From Patescibacteria group bacterium (lineage in GTDB: Bacteria > Patescibacteriota > Microgenomatia > UBA10105 > UBA927): a DNA stretch of 64,000 nucleotides. The position numbers and the translations under genes were made by a program. Shown here piece by piece: positions 3,532-60,722 of this stretch. Position 1 is the first letter of the stretch; each line of letters starts with the position of its first letter. The stretch is from positions 9,013 through 73,012 of the forward strand of contig DATKGN010000012.1 in assembly GCA_035510735.1 (NCBI GenBank), given 5' to 3'. Below the pieces are notes generated by a model. It was given only the letters and a program-made list of their open reading frames with translations, was not told the DNA's origin and ran no database searches.

Positions 3532-3984
3532 ATGAAACTCATTGTTCACACGGATGGCGGAGCGAGGGGAAATCCGGGGCCCAGCGCGGTCGGCGTTGTC
3601 ATTGAAGAGATTACACAGATGCAGGGGGCGCCCCAAAAGAAAAAAATAATTCAAGAATTCGGTAAGACAATAGGGGAGACAACAAACAACGTCGCAGAAT
3701 ACACGGCAGTAATTGAGGCACTCGAGTGGATAACCAATAATCCAATCAACCAATCAACCAATCAACCAATAATCCAATTTTATTTAGACTCAACATTGGT
3801 TGTTAATCAACTCAATGGGATTTTTAAAGTAAAAGATGCGAGGTTACGTGAGTTACTTATGAAAGCGAAAATTCTTGAACAAGGAATAGACGGTTCAATT
3901 CAGTACAACTCCGTCCCAAGAGAACAAAACACGCGTGCAGATTATCTTGTGAATAAAGCGCTCGATGATAAATTAGTTGCTTAG
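3532..3984 (+). CDS. ribonuclease H (RNase HI-like)
   Basis: MKLIVHTDGGARGNPGPSAVGVV...NNVAEYTAVIEALEW...TRADYLVNKAL. The DGG/E/D/D catalytic residues and a C-terminal NxxAD motif of type-1 RNase H are present. The track start at 3493 is upstream and in frame, but the ATG at 3532 fits the family N-terminus. Confidence 0.65.
   Translation: MKLIVHTDGGARGNPGPSAVGVVIEEITQMQGAPQKKKIIQEFGKTIGETTNNVAEYTAVIEALEWITNNPINQSTNQPIIQFYLDSTLVVNQLNGIFKVKDARLRELLMKAKILEQGIDGSIQYNSVPREQNTRADYLVNKALDDKLVA
3744..3775 (+). repeat. tandem octamer repeat (CCAATCAA x about 3.5) in frame inside the RNase H CDS
   Basis: Sequence ccaatcaaccaatcaaccaatcaaccaataatcc, translated NPINQSTNQPIIQ, forms an extra loop between conserved RNase H blocks. 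Confidence 0.6.
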
Positions 3985-8158: not shown

Positions 8159-8875
8159 ATGGTCACACCAATAAATGATCGAAACCGTATTGATAAGCTA
8201 CTGTCTTTTCTTGCTGCATCGTATCCAAAAGCGAAAATTGTTCTTCATTATAAAACATCGTGGGAACTTTTAGTCTCGGTTATTTTATCAGCACAGTGTA
8301 CTGACGTCATGGTTAATAAAGTTACCGAGAAGCTTTTTGCAAAATATAGAACCCTTGGAGACTATGTCGCGGCCCCAATCAGTGACTTTGAAAAGGACAT
8401 TAAATCTACAGGGTTCTATCACAATAAAGCAAAGAATATCGTAGCGTCAGCAAGGATGGTTAAAGAAAAATTTGGCGGGAAAGTGCCGAGAACCATGGAA
8501 GAGATACTGACTCTGCCGGGCGTTGCACGAAAAACTGCTAATGTTGTGTTGGGAAATGCATACGGCGTTATTGAAGGGATTGCGGTCGATACGCACGTCC
8601 ATCGTCTAAGCCAACGACTACGCCTTATCGATTTGACGAAAATCGGAGGAAAGAAACTTATGGTGTTTGAGTATGGTGGCAAACCTGTTGTCGATTATAT
8701 AAAGGATGCCGACCCTACAAAAATCGAAAAAGAACTTATGGGCGTCATTCCGCGCGATCAGTGGTTTACCATCAACCACCGACTGATTGATCATGGTCGC
8801 GCTGTATGTAAAGCACAAAATCCGGATTGCGACAATTGTGTACTTAATAAACTCTGTCCATCATCTCGGGTATAA
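8159..8875 (+). CDS. nth: endonuclease III (DNA glycosylase/AP lyase, HhH-GPD family)
   Basis: HhH-GPD motif (LPGVARKTANVVLGNAYGV...GIAVDTHVHRL) and a C-terminal 4-Cys [4Fe-4S] cluster loop (CKAQNPDCDNCVLNKLC). Confidence 0.75.
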   Translation: MVTPINDRNRIDKLLSFLAASYPKAKIVLHYKTSWELLVSVILSAQCTDVMVNKVTEKLFAKYRTLGDYVAAPISDFEKDIKSTGFYHNKAKNIVASARMVKEKFGGKVPRTMEEILTLPGVARKTANVVLGNAYGVIEGIAVDTHVHRLSQRLRLIDLTKIGGKKLMVFEYGGKPVVDYIKDADPTKIEKELMGVIPRDQWFTINHRLIDHGRAVCKAQNPDCDNCVLNKLCPSSRV

Positions 8876-21706: not shown

Positions 21707-21815
21707 TGTCATCCCCGCGAAGGCGGGGACCCCTGTTTGATTAGTACACAAAAAACGATTCCCGATCCCAACTTGGCCAAGGCTACGTCGGGCGAGGCGG
21801 GTCGGGAATGACAAA
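21707..21815. repeat. MITE/REP-like GC-rich hairpin repeat, 'TGTCATYC...GRAATGACA' family (copy 1), between convergent genes
   Basis: tgtcatccCCGCgaagGCGGggac hairpin at 21707-21733, and gggtcgggaatgacaaaaag at 21797-21816. The termini and GAAG-loop stem match copies at 39827-39885, 48526-48650 and 58861-58987. Confidence 0.55.
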
Positions 21816-36724: not shown

Positions 36725-37428
36725 AACAGAACAAACAAATCATTGGTGTGCTTGGCGGCATGGGGCCGCAGGCAAGTTGCGAGTTATATCGATTGCTTAT
36801 TGAAGGGGCAAGACGCAAGTTTGGTGCACGGATGAACGATGAGTACCCGGAAGTACTCATTGATTCGGTTCCGGTTCCTGATGCCTATGCGGATTTGACA
36901 AAAATGGAGGAAGTGGCACGAATGCTCGAAGACCGGATAAGCAGAATGACTCAGTATGGAGCTACATCCATATCAATGGCGTGTAATACCGTTTGTTTAT
37001 TTGCGGATCGGCTGCAGAAGAGGACGCCGCTGCCTGTAATTTCCGTTGTTGATGAAGTGGTGCGTGAAGTATCCAAGCATCATAAAAAGGTTTTATTGCT
37101 TGCTTCCTCAACGTCACTACGGCTCGGGTTATATCAAATTCGGCTTGCACGCGCAGGAATGTCTTATATGGTACCGGAGCCAAAGGAATATGACTTGTTG
37201 GATAGTCTCATTTTAGAAGTACTTGGGGGTCGAGATCGGAAGGATTTAATGGAAAAGTTGGTACATTTGGTTGAGCGACATGTTGCCTGTGAGAATATCG
37301 AAGCAATTGTTTTAGGGTGCACTGAATTGCCGCTTATATTCCCGACGGATAACCGTTTTCCGGTTTACAGTTCGCTTTCCGTACTCGCCGAAAGCTTATT
37401 AAAACGGTATTATAAGGAGGCCATATGA
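36721..37428 (+). CDS. aspartate/glutamate/hydantoin racemase-family protein
   Basis: IIGVLGGMGPQAS...SMACNTV...VLGCTELPLIF shows the two conserved Cys-containing blocks of Asp/Glu racemases. Confidence 0.7.
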   Translation: MKQNKQIIGVLGGMGPQASCELYRLLIEGARRKFGARMNDEYPEVLIDSVPVPDAYADLTKMEEVARMLEDRISRMTQYGATSISMACNTVCLFADRLQKRTPLPVISVVDEVVREVSKHHKKVLLLASSTSLRLGLYQIRLARAGMSYMVPEPKEYDLLDSLILEVLGGRDRKDLMEKLVHLVERHVACENIEAIVLGCTELPLIFPTDNRFPVYSSLSVLAESLLKRYYKEAI

Positions 37429-39824
37429 ATCTGAAAGATAAAATTGAATCAATTCTAGAAGAGAAAAAAGTTACCTATCGTTTTATTCCGCTGCCGGAAG
37501 ATTTGCCGCCGGATGTGCCATCGCATGCTGCGTTCCATGGAATTGGGATGAAAAACGCGATGACGACTATTTTGTACCGTACGGAAAAAGGGATTATCGC
37601 TGCAGTGAAGCGGGCTGATACAAAAGTTGACCCTAATCGATTAAAGGTTCTCGCGAAGGTAAAGGAGTTACAGTTTGCGTTAGAGGAAGATCTGAAACAA
37701 TTAGGCGTTGAGGTTGGCATGGTCCCATATCTTGGGCTTGATGCTCCGTTTTATATTGATACGTCGGTATTGGAAATCGGGAAAGCATACGGAACGGCAG
37801 CAATGAAAACCATGGGCATGGTGATGGACGCCAAAGACATGCCGAAGGTAAACGGCGGAACTGTCGGGGACTTTGCCATAGAAGTACCTACGGCAAGTTT
37901 AGAAAAATATGTACAAACGATAGATGCGCTTAAGAGTAGCGGTCTTTCGTATGAACTTATTAAACATCCGCCTATTAAAACCGTAGAAGAAGGTTTGGCA
38001 TATTTAGGAATTACTGCTGATCAGGGTGTGTCGACATTACTTTACAAAACAGAGAGCGGACCGGTTGCAGTGCTCAGGCGCGATGATCATCAACTATCAG
38101 ACCAAAAGATTAAAACTGCTCTTCAGATAAAAAGTCTTCTGATGTGTAAGCCGGCCGAGATTCTCGAGTTAACCGGTTGCGAGTCGGGGTATGTGTCGCC
38201 ATATAATCCGAAGATGACGATGCTTATGGATCAAACAATACTCGAAAAGAAGGTAGTGTATTTAGGTACTGGCAGCCCGGAATATGATTTGAAAATTAAA
38301 CCAAAGGATCTCGCAGTTTTCACCCACGCAAAAACTGCGGACGTTATTGAGTCAGGAGTTATCCGGTCAAAGCGCCGCATAGTCTCAGGGATCACCCCGA
38401 GCGGTGACGGGACGCTACACATCGGCAACTATCTTGGTGCGGTAGAGCAGTTTATACGGTTTGCGAAATCGTTTGAATGTTTTCTCTTTGTCGCCGACAT
38501 GCATGGACTTACGACGATCCAAGATAAAAAGCACTTATCAGGGAATATTGAAGCGTTAATTTTGAACGAACTTGCGCTTCTTATGGGATTTTTAACCAAA
38601 GAAGAATTTGAACGAATTGTGTTTTATCGACAATCGGATATCGCGATGCACGGTGAATTACAGTCTATTATCAATAACGTGACGCCGTTGGGACTACTTA
38701 AACGCGCTCATGCATATAAAGATAAACTTGCAAAAGACATATCGGAGGATGACATCAACCTCGGGCTTTTTAATTATCCAATTCTTATGGCGGCTGACAT
38801 CATTATGTATAACGCAGACATCGTGCCTGTGGGGAAGGACCAAAAACAGCATGTAGAAATTACCCGAGATATTGCTGAGCGGTTTAATAAAACGTACAAG
38901 AAGAAAATATTTACCCTACCGGAACCGCTTATTCCGCAGGAAGTCGGTGCGATCATCGGGACCGACGGAAAACGCAAAATGAGTAAAAGTCTCGGGAATA
39001 TCATCGCTATATTTGAACCGGAGGATGTTATCAGGAAGCAAGTGATGAGTACGTATACCGATCCTACCCGAAAACACGCGACCGATCCCGGACATATCGA
39101 GGGGAATATGGTGTTTACATACTTAGACTATTTCGGTGATAAGCAGCAGGTTATCAAGATGAAGGAAGAGTATAAGAAGGGAAAGATTTCTGATGTCGCC
39201 GTCAAAGAATATTTGTTTAAGAGCCTTATAAAATACTTTGCACCAGCGAGAAAAGCATACGAAGAGCTTAAAAATAATCCGGAGATGGTAAAAGAAATCC
39301 TTAGACGCGGACAAGAGCGTGCGCTCGCGATTGCGTTACGGAAAATGAGAGACGTGCGTGAGGTAATCGGGCTTACCACACGGTATTCATTTTCAAGCTC
39401 TATGGCGAAAAACAAAATTAATATTGGATCCCCAATCCCTCCTTCGTCAAAGACTATGGATGGGCACGGCGGGTCGGGGATGACAATTTCCATCGACGAT
39501 TTTGCTCATGTCGAACTCCGGGTCGGAAAAGTCGTCGAAGCGAAAAATAAAGAGGGGAGCGAGAGACTCATCCGATTGGTGGTTGATATTGGCGAGGAAA
39601 AATCGCGGATTATATTCACTGGTGTGCGGCCATTCGGCTATCAACCCTCGGATTTTGCAGGAAAACAATTTTTATTCATCACCAATCTTGCTCCGCGCAA
39701 GATGCTTGATGAGGAGTCACAGGGGATGATCCTCGCGGTTGATGGTCCTTCGACAGGCTCAGGATTGAATAAACCAATATTCGTGAGTGCCGAGGGGATG
39801 CCCATCGGTGCAAAAATAAGATAA
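37425..39824 (+). CDS. trpS: tryptophan--tRNA ligase fused to two N-terminal YbaK/ProX-like deacylase domains and a C-terminal tRNA-binding (Trbp111/EMAP-like) domain
   Basis: Residues about 1-290 form two tandem YbaK-like repeats (each with …G/KTI/LLY+TE.G….V/A.RD/AD…-type blocks). Residues about 310-640 carry the TrpRS core: GITPSGDGTLHIGNYLGAV (HIGH variant), and KMSKS (GKRKMSKSLGN). The C-terminal DFAHVELRVGKVVEAKNKEG...LIRLVVDIGEEKSRIIFTGVRPF...ITNLAPRKM is an OB-fold tRNA-binding domain. Confidence 0.65.
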   Translation: MNLKDKIESILEEKKVTYRFIPLPEDLPPDVPSHAAFHGIGMKNAMTTILYRTEKGIIAAVKRADTKVDPNRLKVLAKVKELQFALEEDLKQLGVEVGMVPYLGLDAPFYIDTSVLEIGKAYGTAAMKTMGMVMDAKDMPKVNGGTVGDFAIEVPTASLEKYVQTIDALKSSGLSYELIKHPPIKTVEEGLAYLGITADQGVSTLLYKTESGPVAVLRRDDHQLSDQKIKTALQIKSLLMCKPAEILELTGCESGYVSPYNPKMTMLMDQTILEKKVVYLGTGSPEYDLKIKPKDLAVFTHAKTADVIESGVIRSKRRIVSGITPSGDGTLHIGNYLGAVEQFIRFAKSFECFLFVADMHGLTTIQDKKHLSGNIEALILNELALLMGFLTKEEFERIVFYRQSDIAMHGELQSIINNVTPLGLLKRAHAYKDKLAKDISEDDINLGLFNYPILMAADIIMYNADIVPVGKDQKQHVEITRDIAERFNKTYKKKIFTLPEPLIPQEVGAIIGTDGKRKMSKSLGNIIAIFEPEDVIRKQVMSTYTDPTRKHATDPGHIEGNMVFTYLDYFGDKQQVIKMKEEYKKGKISDVAVKEYLFKSLIKYFAPARKAYEELKNNPEMVKEILRRGQERALAIALRKMRDVREVIGLTTRYSFSSSMAKNKINIGSPIPPSSKTMDGHGGSGMTISIDDFAHVELRVGKVVEAKNKEGSERLIRLVVDIGEEKSRIIFTGVRPFGYQPSDFAGKQFLFITNLAPRKMLDEESQGMILAVDGPSTGSGLNKPIFVSAEGMPIGAKIR

Positions 39825-39826
39825 AA

Positions 39827-39885
39827 CTGGATTCCCGCCGGAGTTTACCCCGTACTTGATGCGGGGCGGAAATGACAAGCTATGT
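39827..39885. repeat. MITE/REP-like hairpin repeat (copy 2): CTGGATTCCCGCCGGAG...GCGGGGCGGAAATGACAAG
   Basis: Shares the CTGGATTCC...GGAATGACAA termini with copies in polA (48566-48647) and at 58939-58965; lies between convergent trpS and the REC gene. Confidence 0.5.
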
Positions 39886-48157: not shown

Positions 48158-49237
48158 ATGAATCGTTTGGTTCTCATTGACGGAAACGCAGTACTCCACC
48201 GCGCCTTTCACGCCATTCCTCCTTTGACTGCCCCTGACGGGAGTGTGGTAAATGCGGTGTACGGTTTTGCCACAATGCTTCTCCGGCTGTATCACGATTT
48301 GAATCCCACATATATGATTGTGGCGTTTGACCGGCCGAAACCAACCTTTCGGAAAAAAATGTATAAAAAATATCAGGCGACCCGGCCGAAGATGGATGAA
48401 GCGCTCGTCGGACAAATTGAGAAAGTGCATGAACTTGTGAGAGCCTTTGGGATTCCGATCTTTGAAAAAGATGGATTTGAGGCGGACGACGTCATTGGAA
48501 CGCTTTGTAAGAAAGCACTCGGGTCTGTCATCCCGGGCTTGACCCGGGATCCATCTTCTCGTCAAAAACTGGATTCCGGCTCGGAGGCCGAAATGACAAT
48601 ACAGAAAACTGGATTCCGGCTCGGAGGCCGGAATGACAACAAGAATAATATCGATCAGATTATTATTGTGACGGGAGACCGAGATATCCTTCAGCTTGTT
48701 GATGAGACAACATATGTCTATATGCCGACCAAAGGATTATCGGAAGCGAAATTATATAAAGATGCGGACGTAAAAGAACGTATGGGTGTCGCACCCAAAA
48801 AAATTCCGGATTTTAAAGGGCTTGCCGGAGATGCCTCTGATAACTATCCGGGCGTCGAAGGGATTGGACCTAAAACTGCAATTGCGCTTCTTGAGCGATT
48901 CGGTTCCGTCGAGGGAGTTTATATAGCGCTCAAGAAGAAAGACAAACGACTCAAAGAAGTTTCCTCTTCAGTTATTAAAAAACTGGAAGCAGGCAAAAAG
49001 GATGCAGCACTCTCAAAGGATCTCGCAACCATCAGAACTACTGTTGATGTCACGCCAACATTTGATAAGCCGATGACGTCACTTGATACAAAAGAGGCGC
49101 GGAAGTTTTTTGATCACATGCATTTTCACTCATTATTGAAACGCCTGACGAACGGGGGAGCGACTGTTGAAATGAAAAAAACCAAGAAGAGTGAAAAAAC
49201 AAAAGATACGTCTGGCGAACAACAACAGTTATTTTAA
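48158..49237 (+). CDS. stand-alone 5'-3' exonuclease (Pol I N-terminal domain-like, FEN family), interrupted by an in-frame repeat insertion
   Basis: MNRLVLIDGNAVLHRAFHA...AFDRPKPTFRKKMYKKYQATRP...FEADDVIG...IVTGDRDILQL...H3TH region. There is no polymerase domain, and the ORF ends at 49237. The track start at 47903 overlaps the ftsH 3' end. Confidence 0.7.
   Translation: MNRLVLIDGNAVLHRAFHAIPPLTAPDGSVVNAVYGFATMLLRLYHDLNPTYMIVAFDRPKPTFRKKMYKKYQATRPKMDEALVGQIEKVHELVRAFGIPIFEKDGFEADDVIGTLCKKALGSVIPGLTRDPSSRQKLDSGSEAEMTIQKTGFRLGGRNDNKNNIDQIIIVTGDRDILQLVDETTYVYMPTKGLSEAKLYKDADVKERMGVAPKKIPDFKGLAGDASDNYPGVEGIGPKTAIALLERFGSVEGVYIALKKKDKRLKEVSSSVIKKLEAGKKDAALSKDLATIRTTVDVTPTFDKPMTSLDTKEARKFFDHMHFHSLLKRLTNGGATVEMKKTKKSEKTKDTSGEQQQLF
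48526..48650. repeat. composite MITE/REP-like insertion inside the exonuclease CDS: one CTTGA-loop hairpin module plus two tandem ~41-bp 'CTGGATTCCGGCTCGGAGGCCGRAATGACAA' modules
   Basis: 48533-48560 tgtcatcccgggcttgacccgggatcc is near-identical to 58877-58906. 48566-48606 and 48607-48647 are two direct copies. The total of about 126 bp (42 codons) stays in frame, encoding LGSVIPGLTRDPSSRQKLDSGSEAEMTIQKTGFRLGGRNDNKNN between conserved FEN blocks. Confidence 0.6.
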
Positions 49238-49238
49238 T

Positions 49239-49868
49239 ATGCGACGAATTCACTTTTATCACAATACAAAAGATGAAACGCATTGTTATCAGGCGTCTCT
49301 ACGCATGATACTTAAGTATTTTTTGCCTCACGAAAATTTTACCTTTAAACAACTTGACGTAATGACGGGTAAGAAAGAGGGTTTGTGGTCATGGATAATG
49401 CAGGGTGCTATTGCGCTTAAGAAAAGAGGGTTTGAGATAAAAGATATTGAGTCGTTCGATTACAAATCATTTTTGCATAGTCCTAAAGAATACCTACATA
49501 CTCTGGCAAGCAAAGATGTCGTGGATACGTGGATTCAATACAGTGATATCGAGGCGGAAAAACGTAATGCAGAGAAATTTATTAAAGAAGTTGAATTTGA
49601 AAAACGACAGCCGCATTATAGAGATATTATTGATTTATTGGGTAAGAAATATCTTCTGATATGCAATATAAATATAAAAACCCTCAACCGTAAAATGGGG
49701 TACGCCGGACATTTCGTTCTTATATTTCGTGCAACTGAGCATACTATTTGGCTTCACGATCCGGGACTTCCACCGAGAAAAAAAAGAAGGGTAACTCGGA
49801 GAGTATTTGAAGAGGCTTGGGCATATCCTAATGAGAAAGCGAAAAATATCGTTGCGTTTAAGAGATAG
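49239..49868 (+). CDS. stand-alone peptidase C39-like (papain-fold, BtrH/DUF3335-like) domain protein
   Basis: ETHCYQASLRMILKYF (Cys box), ...GHFVLIF...HDPG (His/Asp region). ATG at 49239, 2 nt after the exonuclease stop. Confidence 0.45.
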   Translation: MRRIHFYHNTKDETHCYQASLRMILKYFLPHENFTFKQLDVMTGKKEGLWSWIMQGAIALKKRGFEIKDIESFDYKSFLHSPKEYLHTLASKDVVDTWIQYSDIEAEKRNAEKFIKEVEFEKRQPHYRDIIDLLGKKYLLICNINIKTLNRKMGYAGHFVLIFRATEHTIWLHDPGLPPRKKRRVTRRVFEEAWAYPNEKAKNIVAFKR

Positions 49869-57497: not shown

Positions 57498-58602
57498 GAG
57501 GGTATTATACGGTTATTCTGCGGGAAAATACAATTCTGTGGATTTCATCCTACTTATGTATACACCGAATTATACGATCACGAATAAAATTCTCAAATAT
57601 ATGGGCATTATTGAGGCTGCTAAAGAGGTGATTGAGAATGCCCCATTGGTACCTGCGTGGGAAGCGAAATTTCGAGAAGACGCTATGGTCCGTACCGTCC
57701 ATCATGGGACACACATAGAAGGGAACGAATTATCGTTCGGTGAAGCGGAGAAAGTGCTAGCTGGCGCCAAGATTGTCGGGCGTGATCGGGATATTCAGGA
57801 GGTCCTTAATTACCGGAATGTTCTTAAATTTATTGAAGGATATGATAAGAAGGAAATCACGGAAGAATCGTTGAAGCGCATTCATGAGATGACGGTTCAT
57901 CGGATATTGCCAGACACCGCCATCGGGGTTTATCGAAAGACGCAAGTGGTTGTGAAAAATAGCCAAACAGGAGAGGTAACGTTCCGTCCGCCACCTGCAG
58001 TTGAGGTTCCGTTTCTGATTGCCTCATTTTTGCAGTGGCTCAATGGAACGAACTCTGAAGATATTCACACGGTCATTAAAGCGGGCATTGCGCATTATGA
58101 GATTGTCCGCATCCATCCGTTCCTTGACGGGAACGGCAGGGTTGCACGGGGAGTTGCGACCCTGGTTTTGTTTAAAGACGGGTACGATATTAAGCGCTTC
58201 TTTTCACTTGAGGAACACTATGACCAGGAGCCGTTGTCCTATTATGACGGGCTACAAAGCGTGGGACGCTTAAACGGTAATTTGACTCCATGGCTTGAAT
58301 ATTTTTCGGAAGGCCTTGCTATTGAACTTACCCGCATCAAAGAAAAAATTAAAACGCTTTCAACGGATTTAAAGCTCAAAAAATCGCTTGGAGGGCAACC
58401 GTTAACGCTTACCGAGCGCCAGATTAAAATCGTCGAGTTCGTTCAGGAAAACGGATTTTTACAGAATAAGTCATTTTTTGAATTATTTCCCATGATATCC
58501 GAGGATACGGTTCTTCGAGAATTGAAGGACCTTATTAAAAAGGGTATAGTGAAAAAAGAAGGCACGACCAAAGGCGTACGGTATGTGCTACGAAGTACAT
58601 AA
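57496..58602 (+). CDS. Fic-family protein (AMPylase/phosphocholine transferase fold) with a C-terminal winged-helix domain
   Basis: Canonical Fic motif HPFLDGNGRVARG (HxFx[DE]GNGR) at residues about 203-215; an N-terminal Fic_N-like region. An inhibitory (S/T)xxxE(G/N) motif is not obvious; TVHHGTHIEGN is a candidate. The true start may be an internal Met. Confidence 0.75.
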   Translation: MRVLYGYSAGKYNSVDFILLMYTPNYTITNKILKYMGIIEAAKEVIENAPLVPAWEAKFREDAMVRTVHHGTHIEGNELSFGEAEKVLAGAKIVGRDRDIQEVLNYRNVLKFIEGYDKKEITEESLKRIHEMTVHRILPDTAIGVYRKTQVVVKNSQTGEVTFRPPPAVEVPFLIASFLQWLNGTNSEDIHTVIKAGIAHYEIVRIHPFLDGNGRVARGVATLVLFKDGYDIKRFFSLEEHYDQEPLSYYDGLQSVGRLNGNLTPWLEYFSEGLAIELTRIKEKIKTLSTDLKLKKSLGGQPLTLTERQIKIVEFVQENGFLQNKSFFELFPMISEDTVLRELKDLIKKGIVKKEGTTKGVRYVLRST

Positions 58603-58670
58603 TAATCCAATAAACAAATAATCGAATAATAACTACATTCGTTTATTGAAATACAATTGGATTATTTACT

Positions 58671-58860: not shown

Positions 58861-58987
58861 AGTTGTCATTCCTTTTTTGTCATCCTCGGGCTTGACCCGA
58901 GGATCAGCTTTCTGATAAAAAGTTATCAAAACCAAAAACGGTTCCCGCCTTCGCGGGAATGACAAACGACAGTGAGGATGACAAAAA
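58861..58987. repeat. composite MITE/REP-like hairpin repeat cluster (copy 4) with nested termini TTGTCATTCC...GGAATGACAA and TTGTCATCC...GGATGACAA
   Basis: 58877-58906 ttgtcatcctcgggcttgacccgaggat (9-bp stem, CTTGA loop); 58939-58965 cggttcccgccttcgcgggaatgacaa (7-bp stem, CTTC loop); 58974-58982 ggatgacaa. It lies in the 5' leader of the DNA ligase gene. Confidence 0.55.
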
Positions 58988-58994
58988 ACCAAAT

Positions 58995-60722
58995 ATGAAG
59001 TTTTCAGAGCTTGCTGGGTATTTCAAACGACTGGACAAGACCGCGTCACGGAATGAAATGACGGAGATCCTTGCGGATTTGTTCCGGCACGTACAAAAGG
59101 ATGAAATCGGTAAAATTTGTTACCTTCTTCTCGGGCGAGTTGTTCCACTGTATGAGGCCGTCGAATTCGGCGTTGCCGACAAGTTTATGATCCGCGCGAT
59201 CGCGCTTGCATACGACACCGATCAGGATCATGTTGTTTCGGCGTTCAAAAAAACAGGGGACCTTGGGATGGCGGCCGAAATCTGTGCACTGCAAAAAAAA
59301 CGAAAGCATTCAGATATAGAAGTTTCAAAAGTGTATGACGCGTTATTTTCTGTTGCCAATGAAGGGGGACAGGGATCGCAGGAGAAGAAAATCGGTTTAC
59401 TTGCCGGTCTTCTTTCATCCATGGACGCACTTTCAGCACGGTATCTGGCGAGAATTCCGCTTGATAAACTCCGTCTGGGATTTTCCGATATGACCATGCT
59501 TGATAGTCTGTCATGGATGGTCGCAGGCGATAAATCACTTCGTCCGGTGCTTGAAACCACATACAACGTCCGCCCGGACATCGGGTATCTTGCGCAAACG
59601 GTTAAATCCGACGGTGTTAAAGGTCTTTCTCACATTCATGCGAAAGTCGGTGCTCCTATTCTTGCGTCACTTTGCGCACGGCTTCCGAATGCCGATGAAA
59701 TGATCAAAAAAATGGGAGAAGTTGCCGTTGAACCAAAATATGATGGCGTAAGGGTGCAGATTCATTTCAGACGGGGGAAATTCGTTGCATCCTACTCACG
59801 GAATTTGGAAAATACGACCGCGATGTTTCCGGAACTCGAACAAATTGGCGCGGAATTAAACGGAGACGAAGTTATCCTGGATTCCGAAGCGATCGGGTAC
59901 GATAAACAACATGATAAACTCATCTCATTTCAGGAAACGATGACCCGCAAACGGAAGCACGGAATTGCACAAGCGTCTCAAACAATGCCCCTAAAATTTT
60001 ACGTTTTCGATATTTTATACAAAGACGGTAAGGAATTGTTATCCATTCCGCTACGGGAGCGCCGTAAGATACTTGAGGCAACCCTTAAACAAAAAGAAAA
60101 CCGGTGTCTTATGCTTTCCCCTGAAATAATAACGCGCGATGCAAATGAAATCCGCAGGTATCATAATGAACAGTTAAAAAAAGGCCTTGAAGGAGCGGTG
60201 GTCAAAAAATGGGATAGCATCTATGAGCCCGGACGGACCGGATATCACTGGGTTAAGTTTAAAGAGGAAGAGGGAAAAACCGGTAAACTCACCGATACAA
60301 TTGACGCAGTCATCATGGGATATTCTCGGGGGGAAGGGAAGCGGTCGGGGTTTGGGATAGGCATGTTCCTTGTGGGAGTGAGGAAAGGCGATAGTTTTGT
60401 GACGGTGACTAAAATCGGTACCGGGGTGTCTGATGAATTATGGAAGGATCTCCATCAAAAGCTTCACACTATTAAAGTGTCGGTAAAACCAAAAGAATAT
60501 GGGGAGGTAAATAAATTATTTATTCCCGACGTTTGGGTCGCGCCCCGCATAGTTGTTGAGATAGCAGGTGATGATCTGACAAAATCATCCACCCATGGCG
60601 CCGGCGTTGCCGTACGATTTCCGAGGCTCGTCCGGATACGCATAGACAAATCGCCGCAGCAAGCTACAACAGTCAGTGAAATTGAGGGGATGTTTAATAG
60701 GCAGAAACAATCGCCCCTTTAA
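58995..60722 (+). CDS. lig: ATP-dependent DNA ligase (archaeal/eukaryotic-type)
   Basis: Adenylation motif I KxDGxR (EPKYDGVRVQIH), motifs III-V and the OB domain; ATG at 58995 (MKFSELAGYF). The track start at 58959 reads through the repeat cluster. Confidence 0.8.
   Translation: MKFSELAGYFKRLDKTASRNEMTEILADLFRHVQKDEIGKICYLLLGRVVPLYEAVEFGVADKFMIRAIALAYDTDQDHVVSAFKKTGDLGMAAEICALQKKRKHSDIEVSKVYDALFSVANEGGQGSQEKKIGLLAGLLSSMDALSARYLARIPLDKLRLGFSDMTMLDSLSWMVAGDKSLRPVLETTYNVRPDIGYLAQTVKSDGVKGLSHIHAKVGAPILASLCARLPNADEMIKKMGEVAVEPKYDGVRVQIHFRRGKFVASYSRNLENTTAMFPELEQIGAELNGDEVILDSEAIGYDKQHDKLISFQETMTRKRKHGIAQASQTMPLKFYVFDILYKDGKELLSIPLRERRKILEATLKQKENRCLMLSPEIITRDANEIRRYHNEQLKKGLEGAVVKKWDSIYEPGRTGYHWVKFKEEEGKTGKLTDTIDAVIMGYSRGEGKRSGFGIGMFLVGVRKGDSFVTVTKIGTGVSDELWKDLHQKLHTIKVSVKPKEYGEVNKLFIPDVWVAPRIVVEIAGDDLTKSSTHGAGVAVRFPRLVRIRIDKSPQQATTVSEIEGMFNRQKQSPL

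Follow-up and report, generated by a model that had tools for sequence, protein, structure and literature searches.

Alignments with orthologues show that the gene for a 5′-3′ exonuclease / flap endonuclease (FEN) in this Patescibacteria genome carries a derived, in-frame insertion of 120 bp. The inserted segment very probably consists of three CGTC-tagged REP units and is a selfish or neutral passenger in a linker of the enzyme, tolerated there and not a functional module. The insert shares nucleotide-level identity with dispersed repeat units, and these elements turn up again in frame inside other genes. All coordinates refer to the window, which is the whole stretch of 64,000 nucleotides (64 kb) that was analyzed.

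The host gene

The host of the insertion (48158..49237, + strand) encodes a protein of 359 amino acids with the Pfam domains 5_3_exonuc_N and 5_3_exonuc. A PDB search matched the product to Pol I and FEN structures, and the structure model superposed on bacterial FEN and on ExoIX with TM scores of 0.7-0.8, normalised to the target. The gene order FtsH-exo-GT4 is common to the window and the exonuclease orthologues. The ORF is full length, and the orthologue alignment showed that all invariant catalytic and DNA-binding columns are kept. Comparison with the gene of orthologue P0002 gave a dN/dS of 0.06, by which the exonuclease gene is under strong purifying selection. With this ratio and its intact catalytic residues, the gene looks functional.

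The insertion and its site

DNA and protein alignments with the closest orthologue placed the 120-bp (40-codon) insertion at 48518..48637 of the + strand, where it encodes LGSVIPGLTRDPSSRQKLDSGSEAEMTIQKTGFRLGGRND. These limits were taken from the DNA alignment with P0002 and are accurate to a few nucleotides. P0002, a protein of 319 amino acids that is 88% identical, lacks exactly 40 residues (LGSV...GRND). In the other aligned short-linker orthologues (P0004, P0005, P0007, P0008, P0009 and P0011) the linker measures 0-4 residues. The insert is derived, because the orthologues have such a short linker and the 88%-identical P0002 is without the segment. The insertion is not datable since the nearest empty-site orthologue is distant, with a dS of about 1.06 between the two genes.

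The initial annotation had proposed an in-frame insertion of dispersed palindromic modules in a conserved FEN / Pol I-type 5′ nuclease, and the orthologue alignments bear this out, with the site found empty in the nearest relatives. The size given there, 126 bp or 42 codons, is corrected by the P0002 alignment to a net 120 bp or 40 codons. Its statement that the insertion introduces neither a frameshift nor a stop codon holds: the exonuclease gene stays open because the insert has a length divisible by three and is read in the only frame of the + strand that is free of stop codons. The GC content of the insert is 57%, compared to 44% for the rest of the exonuclease gene.

In alignments with Pol I and FEN structures from the PDB, the query passes from residue 120 to residue 167 while the targets move by about 5 residues. 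The insertion site lies between the helix formed by residues 109-120, which follows the FEADD metal ligands, and the strand of residues 167-171, which precedes the TGDRD motif. By secondary-structure logic, the insert-bearing end of this helix and strand would point away from the metal-binding carboxylates E108/D110/D111 and D174/D176. The insert is probably translated as a 40-residue Gly/Ser/Arg-rich surface loop that the model suggests to be disordered. The modeling proposed in the initial annotation recovered a FEN fold with the insert as a loop, and the flanking domains outside the insert were modeled with confidence; the loop itself was of low confidence (pLDDT <50 at residues 123-162), and we infer both its translation and its exposure at the surface. 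Predicted tryptic peptides of the loop include DPSSR, LDSGSEAEMTIQK and TGFR.

When the insert and its flanks were compared, neither a target-site duplication nor a flanking direct repeat was found. About 7 nt of the 120 lie outside the repeat units described below. An Rfam scan of the whole window returned only a tRNA and nothing at the insert site. An intron, an intein and translational bypassing were rejected, as the segment is only 120 nt long, in frame and stop-free, and carries no ribozyme or intein signature.

The same linker varies in length among the orthologues, and P0003, P0023, P0030, P0038 and P0062 carry other inserts. The inserts at this loop are not all CGTC units: those of P0003 and P0062 are A-rich octamer-like repeats and that of P0030 is a GTGACA-type repeat. 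At a second site, an insert in P0062 and P0077 (ESGIPS.SLRAGMNH) resembles the long-loop units of the window.

Architecture of the repeat units

The insert contains three copies of one kind of hairpin unit, composed of a TGTC tag, a stem of 8-9 bp starting with AT, a loop of 3-6 nt and a CCA tail. Unit X (48526..48554, + strand) has the TGTC tag, the stems ATCCCGGG and CCCGGGAT separated by the loop CTTGA, and the tail CCAT; it matches the degenerate SRM motif. Unit Y1 (48569..48598, − strand) reads TGTC-ATTTCGGC-CTCCGA-GCCGGAAT-CCAG in the reverse orientation and has one stem mismatch, a G to A change at 48590. Unit Y2 (48609..48638, − strand) is the consensus copy, TGTC-ATTCCGGC-CTCCGA-GCCGGAAT-CCAG. 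The Y stems ATTCCGGC and GCCGGAAT enclose the 6-nt loop CTCCGA; alternatively, Y can be folded with a 9-bp stem containing one mismatch and a 4-nt loop. X and Y, which had been described as different modules, are thus the same kind of unit, with X in the forward and both Y copies in the opposite orientation.

X and Y1 form an inverted dimer of 73 nt (48526-48598) with the TGTC tags outermost, and the extra Y copy follows 40 bp further on. Y1 and Y2 are held in two tandem periods (48565..48644), each consisting of 35 nt that are identical at 34/35 positions and 5 divergent nt. The step from 48565 to 48605 gives a tandem period of 40 bp, not the 41 bp assigned at first. The insert strand is predicted to fold with a z score of −3.3, both as DNA and as RNA, and the predicted RNA fold has an energy of −50.7 kcal/mol.

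Copies elsewhere in the window

The 64 kb hold nine to ten units, three inverted dimers included, and one further dimer lies beyond the end of the window. The SRM degenerate motif, HGTCWYN(0-2)YYVSBRHN(0-5)WNVSBRGN(0-2)RNCYNB, had 3 matches in the window as compared to 0.26 in shuffled sequences, and a generic unit detector found 6 units versus 1.04 in shuffles. Units of this class also form an inverted dimer with outermost TGTC tags in the intergenic DNA between two convergent genes (21707..21813), where the dimer begins directly after a stop codon. A second in-frame case was found in a TrpRS-like ORF, where, according to the Pfam domain limits, a long-loop unit encoding GSPIPPSSKTMDGHGGSGMT occupies a linker (39428..39485, − strand); this segment is missing from 9/9 homologues. 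A unit variant immediately 3′ of the TrpRS stop codon (39824..39878, − strand) is situated between convergent genes. The DNA ligase ORF has at its 5′ end an inverted dimer (58878..58964) formed by an X-type unit and a canonical NTS-like unit, TGTCATTCCCGCGAAGGCGGGAAC, and the annotated ATG lies inside a unit. Compared with the 28-nt NTS consensus, the unit at 58937-58964 has no more than 5 mismatches.

Copies in other metagenome contigs

Identical units are widespread. X is identical at 29/29 positions to positions 8199-8223 plus tail of metagenome locus L230, and more than 120 unrelated metagenome contigs contain an identical copy of the 25-nt core of Y. The X-Y dimer aligns end to end with copies in a LeuRS gene (L175), in DUF2298 genes (L168 and L230) and in an intergenic copy of the same MAG, and an in-frame dimer is present in two diverged LeuRS orthologues. 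These alignments define the X-Y dimer as a discrete element that recurs. Upstream of TGTC, the copies have unrelated sequences. Y also occurs in frame with a different partner, in genes for glycosyltransferase and pseudouridine synthase on other metagenome contigs.

Among the metagenome loci, 67/85 close unit pairs have the tags outermost. Location inside coding sequence is the minor case, as 14/89 Y units in the metagenome contigs fall inside long ORFs and units are rarer in ORFs than random positions (16% vs 55%). The unit-bearing long ORFs have genuine Pfam domains (LeuRS, GT4, GT2, DUF2298, N6_N4 methylase and pseudouridine synthase). In L230, L160 and L051, small Ssn-like GIY-YIG genes (PF01541) are flanked by single units in inverted orientation with the tags outermost.

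Proposed origin of the insert

The most plausible course of events is that an inverted X-Y dimer, an extra Y copy and about 7 nt of filler together added 120 bp to the exonuclease gene, and that this insertion landed in a short linker of a stand-alone flap endonuclease. A state with the X-Y dimer only would, at 80 bp, be out of frame, and the extra Y might have restored the frame. The repeat would then have been translated as a loop that the enzyme tolerates, and the insertion would have survived as harmless. We assume the insert to be neutral; the loop, or the structure of its mRNA or DNA, may have a function.

The mobilizing enzyme would, by analogy, be an Ssn-type GIY-YIG single-strand nuclease or another hairpin-recognizing enzyme acting on extruded hairpins. 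A regular expression and phmmer searches with two GIY-YIG sequences found no GIY-YIG protein among the ORFs of the window. No GIY-YIG, RAYT, Y1 or other transposase domain was present in the window and about 10 kb beyond it, which together cover about 74 kb of the genome. The named top matches of the GIY-YIG homologue search came from Nitrospinae, Bipolaricaulota and Desulfobacteraceae, and a PDB search with the GIY-YIG ORF gave only a weak match to UPF0213.

Alternative explanations

The repeat cluster could also be a functional switch or regulator, in which slippage between the Y copies or hairpin-stimulated deletion toggles the FEN reading frame, making it a contingency or mutator locus, or in which the structure of the mRNA or single-stranded DNA tunes expression. 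The 34/35 identity of the two tandem copies, a period of 40 bp that is not a multiple of 3, and the strong predicted DNA and RNA structure of the insert are in line with such a role, as are tandem unit arrays elsewhere, e.g. in L230, where three copies follow one another at a period of 41 bp. Di Nocera et al. raised the speculative idea that mutators might arise through REPs in repair genes (PMC3733652). However, low slippage rates are expected with only two copies, and no length variants are known; the insert-bearing allele is known from one genome, and no other protein falls in its cluster. A change by one 40-bp copy in either direction would abolish the function of a gene under strong purifying selection, and the null allele would have no obvious way back except exact re-duplication. 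The presence of the same elements in unrelated genes and in intergenic DNA suggests that they have no gene-specific role. The slipped-strand and phase-variation reading of the initial annotation received no support in the analysis, and we regard a switch or regulatory function as unlikely. More doubtful still is the specific proposal that the two 40-bp Y copies form a reversible frame switch, with hairpin-stimulated slippage giving rise to FEN-null, hyper-recombinogenic or mutator subpopulations and with REP invasion being selected rather than merely tolerated. If it were true, selection would favor the entry of REPs into the replication and repair genes of reduced genomes, which Di Nocera et al. 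noted and left unexplained.

REP-like repeats and 40-bp tandem duplications are classic trouble spots of assembly, and the insert might reflect a mis-join or a spurious duplication of Y caused by short repeats in the MAG. Logan (short-k) assemblies of the same organism indeed gave the neighboring genes and no full-length copy of the exonuclease. Yet the exonuclease gene is identical in two deposited assemblies, a 102-kb NCBI contig and a 52.9-kb ENA contig (k141_6690413), which may share reads. A read pair is moreover longer than the insert, which keeps the frame exactly, and equivalent in-frame dimers occur in many independent contigs, including the two diverged LeuRS orthologues, which makes an artefact very improbable. 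To the same degree we doubt that the exonuclease gene is a decaying pseudogene of which the insertion is a symptom. Repeat invasion of coding sequence often goes with gene decay in reduced genomes, but here the full-length ORF with its retained catalytic and DNA-binding columns, the low dN/dS, the conserved synteny and the confident FEN-fold model of the flanking domains argue otherwise. An ordinary variable loop specific to the lineage, grown by local duplication and resembling dispersed repeats by chance, would fit the variable length of the linker and the A-rich octamer-like or GTGACA-type inserts of orthologues, but this reading is effectively refuted by stretches of 25-29 nt that are identical to units at other loci of the window and in more than 120 unrelated contigs, by the palindromic architecture that is kept with different stems, and by the deviating GC content.

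Implications

In-frame palindromes were reportedly described in Rickettsia protein genes in 2000, in work attributed to Ogata and coworkers (2000 and 2002), and CGTC and GTAG REPs followed in several phyla in 2013; the present case adds an ultra-small Patescibacteria genome to this range. Two genes of an essential type, those for FEN and TrpRS, are affected within 64 kb, and other uncultivated bacteria have the same 70-nt dimer in LeuRS and DUF2298 genes. In proteins of such genomes, ‘extra loops’ that are specific to a lineage can thus be repeat DNA and not adaptive insertions. Peptides encoded by the repeats (VIPASEPES, LDSGSEAGMT, WIPGQARDD and similar ones) can seed false homology, and gene callers may start ORFs within units, as at the DNA ligase gene. 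The analysis also ties the work on Ssn and NTS to intragenic copies, which that work left unconsidered. How such elements are understood to work is unchanged by the present case.

Comparison with known repeat systems

CGTC-tagged REPs are defined by a CGTC tag (with the variants TGTC and CCTC), a stem of 8-9 bp that opens with two complementary A/T pairs, a loop of 4-5 nt and a CCA tail; they mostly form inverted dimers and lie after genes or between convergent genes (PMC3733652). The units of the window follow this plan. TGTC precedes the stem in X, Y1, Y2 and other window units, X has the tail CCAT and both Y units the tail CCAG, and the stem and loop agree as well, although the 6-nt loop of Y is slightly beyond the 4-5 nt range. 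The units are dispersed, multi-copy and mostly intergenic, and often arranged as inverted dimers. Inverted dimers predominate here as in the superfamily, as do positions after genes or between convergent genes, and in both a minority of the units sits in frame within coding sequence. CGTC and GTAG REPs have been found in frame in genes for Pol I, tRNA synthetases and pseudouridine synthase, where dimers encode 20-30 amino acids and clusters 43-82, and no RAYT flanked by CGTC units was found by Di Nocera et al. (PMC3733652). The Pol I hosts reported there are full-length, whereas the host described here is a stand-alone FEN. Further differences are that the present insert combines a dimer with one extra unit in tandem and that the host belongs to the Patescibacteria (CPR), outside the five phyla listed in 2013. 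A literature search linking CPR or Patescibacteria with REP, REPIN or MITE found nothing relevant.

The units also share features with the Neisseria Transformation Sequence (NTS) and the Ssn-related motifs (SRM), repeats tied to the GIY-YIG ssDNA nuclease SsnA. Cleavage and binding by SsnA depend critically on the GTC that precedes the palindrome and on the C that immediately follows it (PMC11893778), and X, Y1 and Y2 all have both. X and two other window units match the SRM motif; Y1 and Y2 deviate from it at stem positions, and Y shares the head GTCATTCC and the tail GGAATCYRG of the NTS consensus. The small GIY-YIG genes flanked by units on other contigs reproduce the NTS-ssnA-NTS arrangement that is typical of genes for SsnA-like (cd10448) proteins. 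The paper on NTS and SRM (PMC11893778) covers neither intragenic copies nor Patescibacteria.

Two inverted REP units with a short spacer that can fold into one long hairpin are also seen in REPINs, which are mobilized by RAYT (IS200/IS605-like) transposases encoded between the same REPs (Bertels & Rainey), and the Neisseria ATTCCCGCGCAGGCGGGAATC repeat has been treated as a REPIN (bioRxiv 10.1101/2021.07.10.451892). Despite this doublet architecture, the elements do not represent a REPIN/RAYT system, as the tag is TGTC/CGTC instead of GTAG and no Y1-transposase domain occurs among the called genes of the locus. Nor are they classical MITEs: their outer units serve as inverted termini, yet no target-site duplication is present.

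Like RPE-type elements, the insert is a palindromic repeat that lies in frame within a conserved protein gene, keeps the ORF open without destroying the gene and is missing from orthologues. The classic RPE-1 is longer (about 100-150 bp), consists of a single palindrome and belongs to a different sequence family. The analogy with the Rickettsia elements drawn in the initial annotation proved better than claimed, since the units fall in the same CGTC-REP superfamily as RPE-4 and RPE-6, which are classified as CGTC-4 and CGTC-1 REPs, respectively, CGTC-1 being the Neisseria dRS3 repeat (PMC3733652). Judged by their sequence features, the units match this superfamily together with Neisseria dRS3/NTS and RPE-4/-6, where the link to the RPEs follows the published classification (PMC3733652). 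The in-frame insertion of REPs is an already described kind of event, and the present case is new mainly for the host group.

Repeat insertion in the exonuclease gene

The exonuclease ORF (48158-49237, plus strand) encodes a 359-aa protein with the Pfam domains 5_3_exonuc_N and 5_3_exonuc. PDB chains of Pol I and FEN enzymes aligned with residues 2-120 and 165/167-332, and between these blocks some 46 residues of the exonuclease were skipped as compared to about 5 in the Pol I/FEN targets. The nearest of 6,753 homologues, P0002 (319 aa, 88% identity over aligned columns), has an empty site and lacks exactly 40 residues of the window protein. The linker at the insertion point is also just 0-4 residues long in six more orthologues (P0004, P0005, P0007, P0008, P0009 and P0011), and the insertion is therefore real and derived. 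In the DNA alignment with the P0002 gene the gap measured 120 bp (48518-48637, edges accurate to a few nt). The initial annotation of an in-frame repeat insertion was thus right in outline, but its size is 120 bp or 40 codons instead of the proposed 126 bp or 42 codons. An identical exonuclease gene is carried by a second deposited assembly (ENA k141_6690413, 52.9 kb). The G+C content of the insert is 57% versus 44% in the remainder of the gene, and its only stop-free frame on the coding strand is the one in use. No target-site duplication was visible around the insert.

The insert contains unit X (48526-48554, plus strand; TGTC-ATCCCGGG-CTTGA-CCCGGGAT-CCAT) and units Y1 (48569-48598) and Y2 (48609-48638), both on the minus strand with the structure TGTC-ATT(T/C)CGGC-CTCCGA-GCCGGAAT-CCAG. 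Together these make up 113 of the 120 nt; the other 7 nt have no counterpart in further copies. X and Y had been described as distinct modules. Since all three share the TGTC tag, a stem of 8-9 bp that opens with A·T pairs, the short loop and the CCA tail, they represent a single unit type in opposite orientations. An inverted dimer of 73 nt with the tags outermost is made up of X and Y1, and Y2 is an additional tandem copy. The tandem period is 40 bp rather than 41 bp (48565 to 48605; 34 of 35 positions identical, followed by 5 divergent nt). The region folds much more stably than shuffled sequences (z about −3.3 for both DNA and RNA), and besides the hairpin of each unit a single long hairpin pairing X with Y2 was predicted.

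State of the host gene and position of the loop

Once the 120 bp were removed, the exonuclease and P0002 genes aligned codon for codon, with a dN/dS of 0.06 at a dS of about 1.06. Every invariant column of the family is kept, including the acidic residues of the FEADD and TGDRD motifs. The initial annotation had raised the possibility of phase variation, in which the tandem Y repeat would expand or contract by slippage. Gain or loss of one 40-bp copy would indeed shift the frame, and tandem unit arrays are known elsewhere, such as three copies with a 41-bp period in the metagenomic locus L230. However, the exonuclease has only two copies, variant alleles are not known, and strong constraint acts on the gene; a switch function is very improbable.

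The AlphaFold2 model of the exonuclease (mean pLDDT 70, pTM 0.71) is confident in its N- and C-terminal domains. Its superposition on M. smegmatis FenA, E. coli ExoIX and Pol I 5' nucleases gave TM scores of 0.7-0.8, normalized to the target. Residues 123-162 have pLDDT values below 50 and link the C-terminus of helix 109-120 with the N-terminus of strand 167-171. Because the metal ligands lie at the opposite ends of these elements, with E108/D110/D111 at the start of the helix and D174/D176 after the strand, the inserted loop is predicted to leave the protein on the side that points away from the active site. The linker is length-variable in other orthologues, where the inserts are other types of repeats, and the site is thus permissive.

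Tandem 8-nt repeats occur in the window at 3732-3778 and 58601-58630 (AACCAATC / AATAATCA), and repeats of a similar A-rich, octamer-like type are part of the reading frame (QNSKSKIQNKSK...) at the insertion loop of the exonucleases P0003, P0023 and P0062. A second in-frame insert is common to P0038, P0062, P0067 and P0077 (loci L123 and L250); it lies ca. 25 codons after GIGPKTA in another loop and reads …ESGIPS(A/S)SLRAGMNH…, its DNA (GGAATCCCTTCGGCCTCGCTCAGGGCGGGTATGAATCA) being similar to the long-loop units of the window. Between the exonuclease and a GT4 glycosyltransferase gene the window has an ORF of ca. 209 aa (49239-49868, plus strand) with a faint Peptidase_C39 match; orthologous loci have the order FtsH-exo-GT4 without an intervening gene.

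Other units in this genome

An intergenic X-Y inverted dimer (TGTCATCCCAGGCTAGAACTGGGATCCA ... rc TGTCATTCCGGCCTCTGAGCCGGAATCCG) is present on the same contig ca. 1.7 kb past the end of the window (L247, 14128-14197), in the spacer 3' of a peptidyl-tRNA hydrolase gene, so this genome carries the dimer family at dispersed sites. In the window the published SRM motif (Ssn-related motif) gave 3 matches versus 0.26 in dinucleotide shuffles, and a generic unit detector gave 6 versus 1.04. An inverted dimer at 21707-21813 lies between convergent genes and begins immediately 3' of a stop codon. A minus-strand long-loop variant at 39428-39485 forms a second in-frame insertion, encoding GSPIPPSSKTMDGHGGSGMT in an inter-domain linker of a TrpRS-like ORF, and was missing in all nine homologues; another minus-strand unit (39824-39878) directly follows the stop codon of this ORF. 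The TrpRS-like ORF itself (37425-39824, plus strand, 799 aa) combines two N-terminal YbaK/ProX-type tRNA_edit domains with tRNA-synt_1b and a C-terminal tRNA_bind domain and has an additional STGSG close to the C-terminus; its homologues are ca. 450 aa and have no editing domains.

A further inverted dimer (58878-58964) overlaps the annotated start of an ATP-dependent DNA ligase ORF (58959-60722). The annotated ATG falls within a repeat unit (58941-58964, GGGAATGACA); the real start may be a Met further downstream, and thus such units can mislead gene callers.

Distribution of the X-Y dimer

The exact 25-nt Y core (CATTYCGGCCTCCGAGCCGGAATCC) was found in more than 120 metagenome contigs (L125-L244 among the matches listed) from many environments and with G+C contents of 0.39 to 0.62. 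Beyond the tag, a specific stem-loop variant is therefore common to very different genomes, suggesting either horizontal spread or strong constraint. Among the metagenome matches listed, 67 of 85 close unit pairs were inverted with the tags outermost, mostly spanning 69-83 nt. The exonuclease dimer aligned end to end with dimers of L175, L168 and L230 and with the intergenic copy of this MAG; as judged from these alignments, the X-Y dimer is a discrete and widely shared element.

Units were rarer in long ORFs than random positions (14 of 89, 16%, versus 55%, among the metagenome matches listed). Intragenic units sit in genuine genes, encoding LeuRS (L175, and L219 as judged by a near-identical flanking peptide), DUF2298 membrane proteins, GT4 and GT2 glycosyltransferases, an N6/N4 DNA methylase and an RluA-type pseudouridine synthase. 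In-frame REPs in DNA polymerase I, tRNA synthetases and pseudouridine synthases have been known since 2013, dimers encoding 20-30 aa and clusters 43-82 aa (PMC3733652), and the host genes found here repeat this pattern. Named CPR genomes also carry units within long ORFs (L022, L043, L054), a count to be taken as a maximum, since GC-rich DNA often contains stop-free ORFs.

Origin and relation to known repeats

The CGTC-tagged REP superfamily was defined by Di Nocera et al. in 2013 by a CGTC, often TGTC, tag, 8-9 bp stems opening with A·T, 4-5 nt loops and a CCA tail; the units are chiefly inverted dimers, chiefly intergenic and 3' of genes, and include Neisseria dRS3 and Rickettsia RPE-6 (both CGTC-1) and RPE-4 (CGTC-4) (PMC3733652). 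The window units share all of these features, except for the 6-nt loop of Y. In 2025, Chenal et al. defined the Neisseria Transformation Sequence (NTS, CGTCATTCCCGCGMAVGCGGGAATCYRG), of which the dRS3 repeat is a part, and the degenerate SRM, which across bacteria adjoins small GIY-YIG ssDNA nucleases (SsnA, cd10448) (PMC11893778). For SsnA, the GTC preceding the palindrome is important for cleavage and the C following it for binding (PMC11893778). Unit X fits the SRM motif, whereas Y has the head and tail of NTS but fails the strict SRM regular expression because its stem differs. A scan for GTCATTCC-N10-40-GGAATCCAG with one genome per species gave at least 120 loci in many phyla, with four CPR genomes among the matches listed.

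Most likely, a mobile or once-mobile CGTC-REP dimer with an additional unit entered a tolerant linker, persistence would have been restricted to an allele of multiple-of-three length lying in the sole open frame, and translation of the repeat would now yield a disordered loop. Published views differ on what mobilizes these units: a dedicated transposase was not found by Di Nocera et al. (PMC3733652), Bertels and Rainey regarded the repeat of Neisseria as a REPIN that a Group 2 RAYT serves (bioRxiv 10.1101/2021.07.10.451892), and Chenal et al. called the NTS-ssnA-NTS arrangement IS-like (PMC11893778). The latter layout is matched by small GIY-YIG ORFs (Pfam PF01541) that have an inverted unit on either side, again with outermost tags. 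Two of these ORFs are in L230 (2140-2609 and 5780-6131, with CGTC/NTS-type brackets) and others in L160 and L051, and these contigs carry the very X and Y units of the exonuclease. The three tandem units of L230 adjoin one of its GIY-YIG ORFs, and a DUF2298 gene of the same contig carries an in-frame X-Y dimer. Because no GIY-YIG or Y1 transposase gene was found in the ca. 74 kb of this genome examined, we infer the mobilizing enzyme by analogy; the gene-less X-Y dimer, which has the same geometry as the GIY-YIG brackets, is compatible with a non-autonomous derivative.

Our literature search found no report of such repeats for Patescibacteria. The exonuclease insertion is an instance of a phenomenon known for Rickettsia RPEs and CGTC/GTAG REPs; new are the host group, the dimer-plus-one architecture, and the direct tie of intragenic copies to the NTS/SRM repeats described in work on Ssn.
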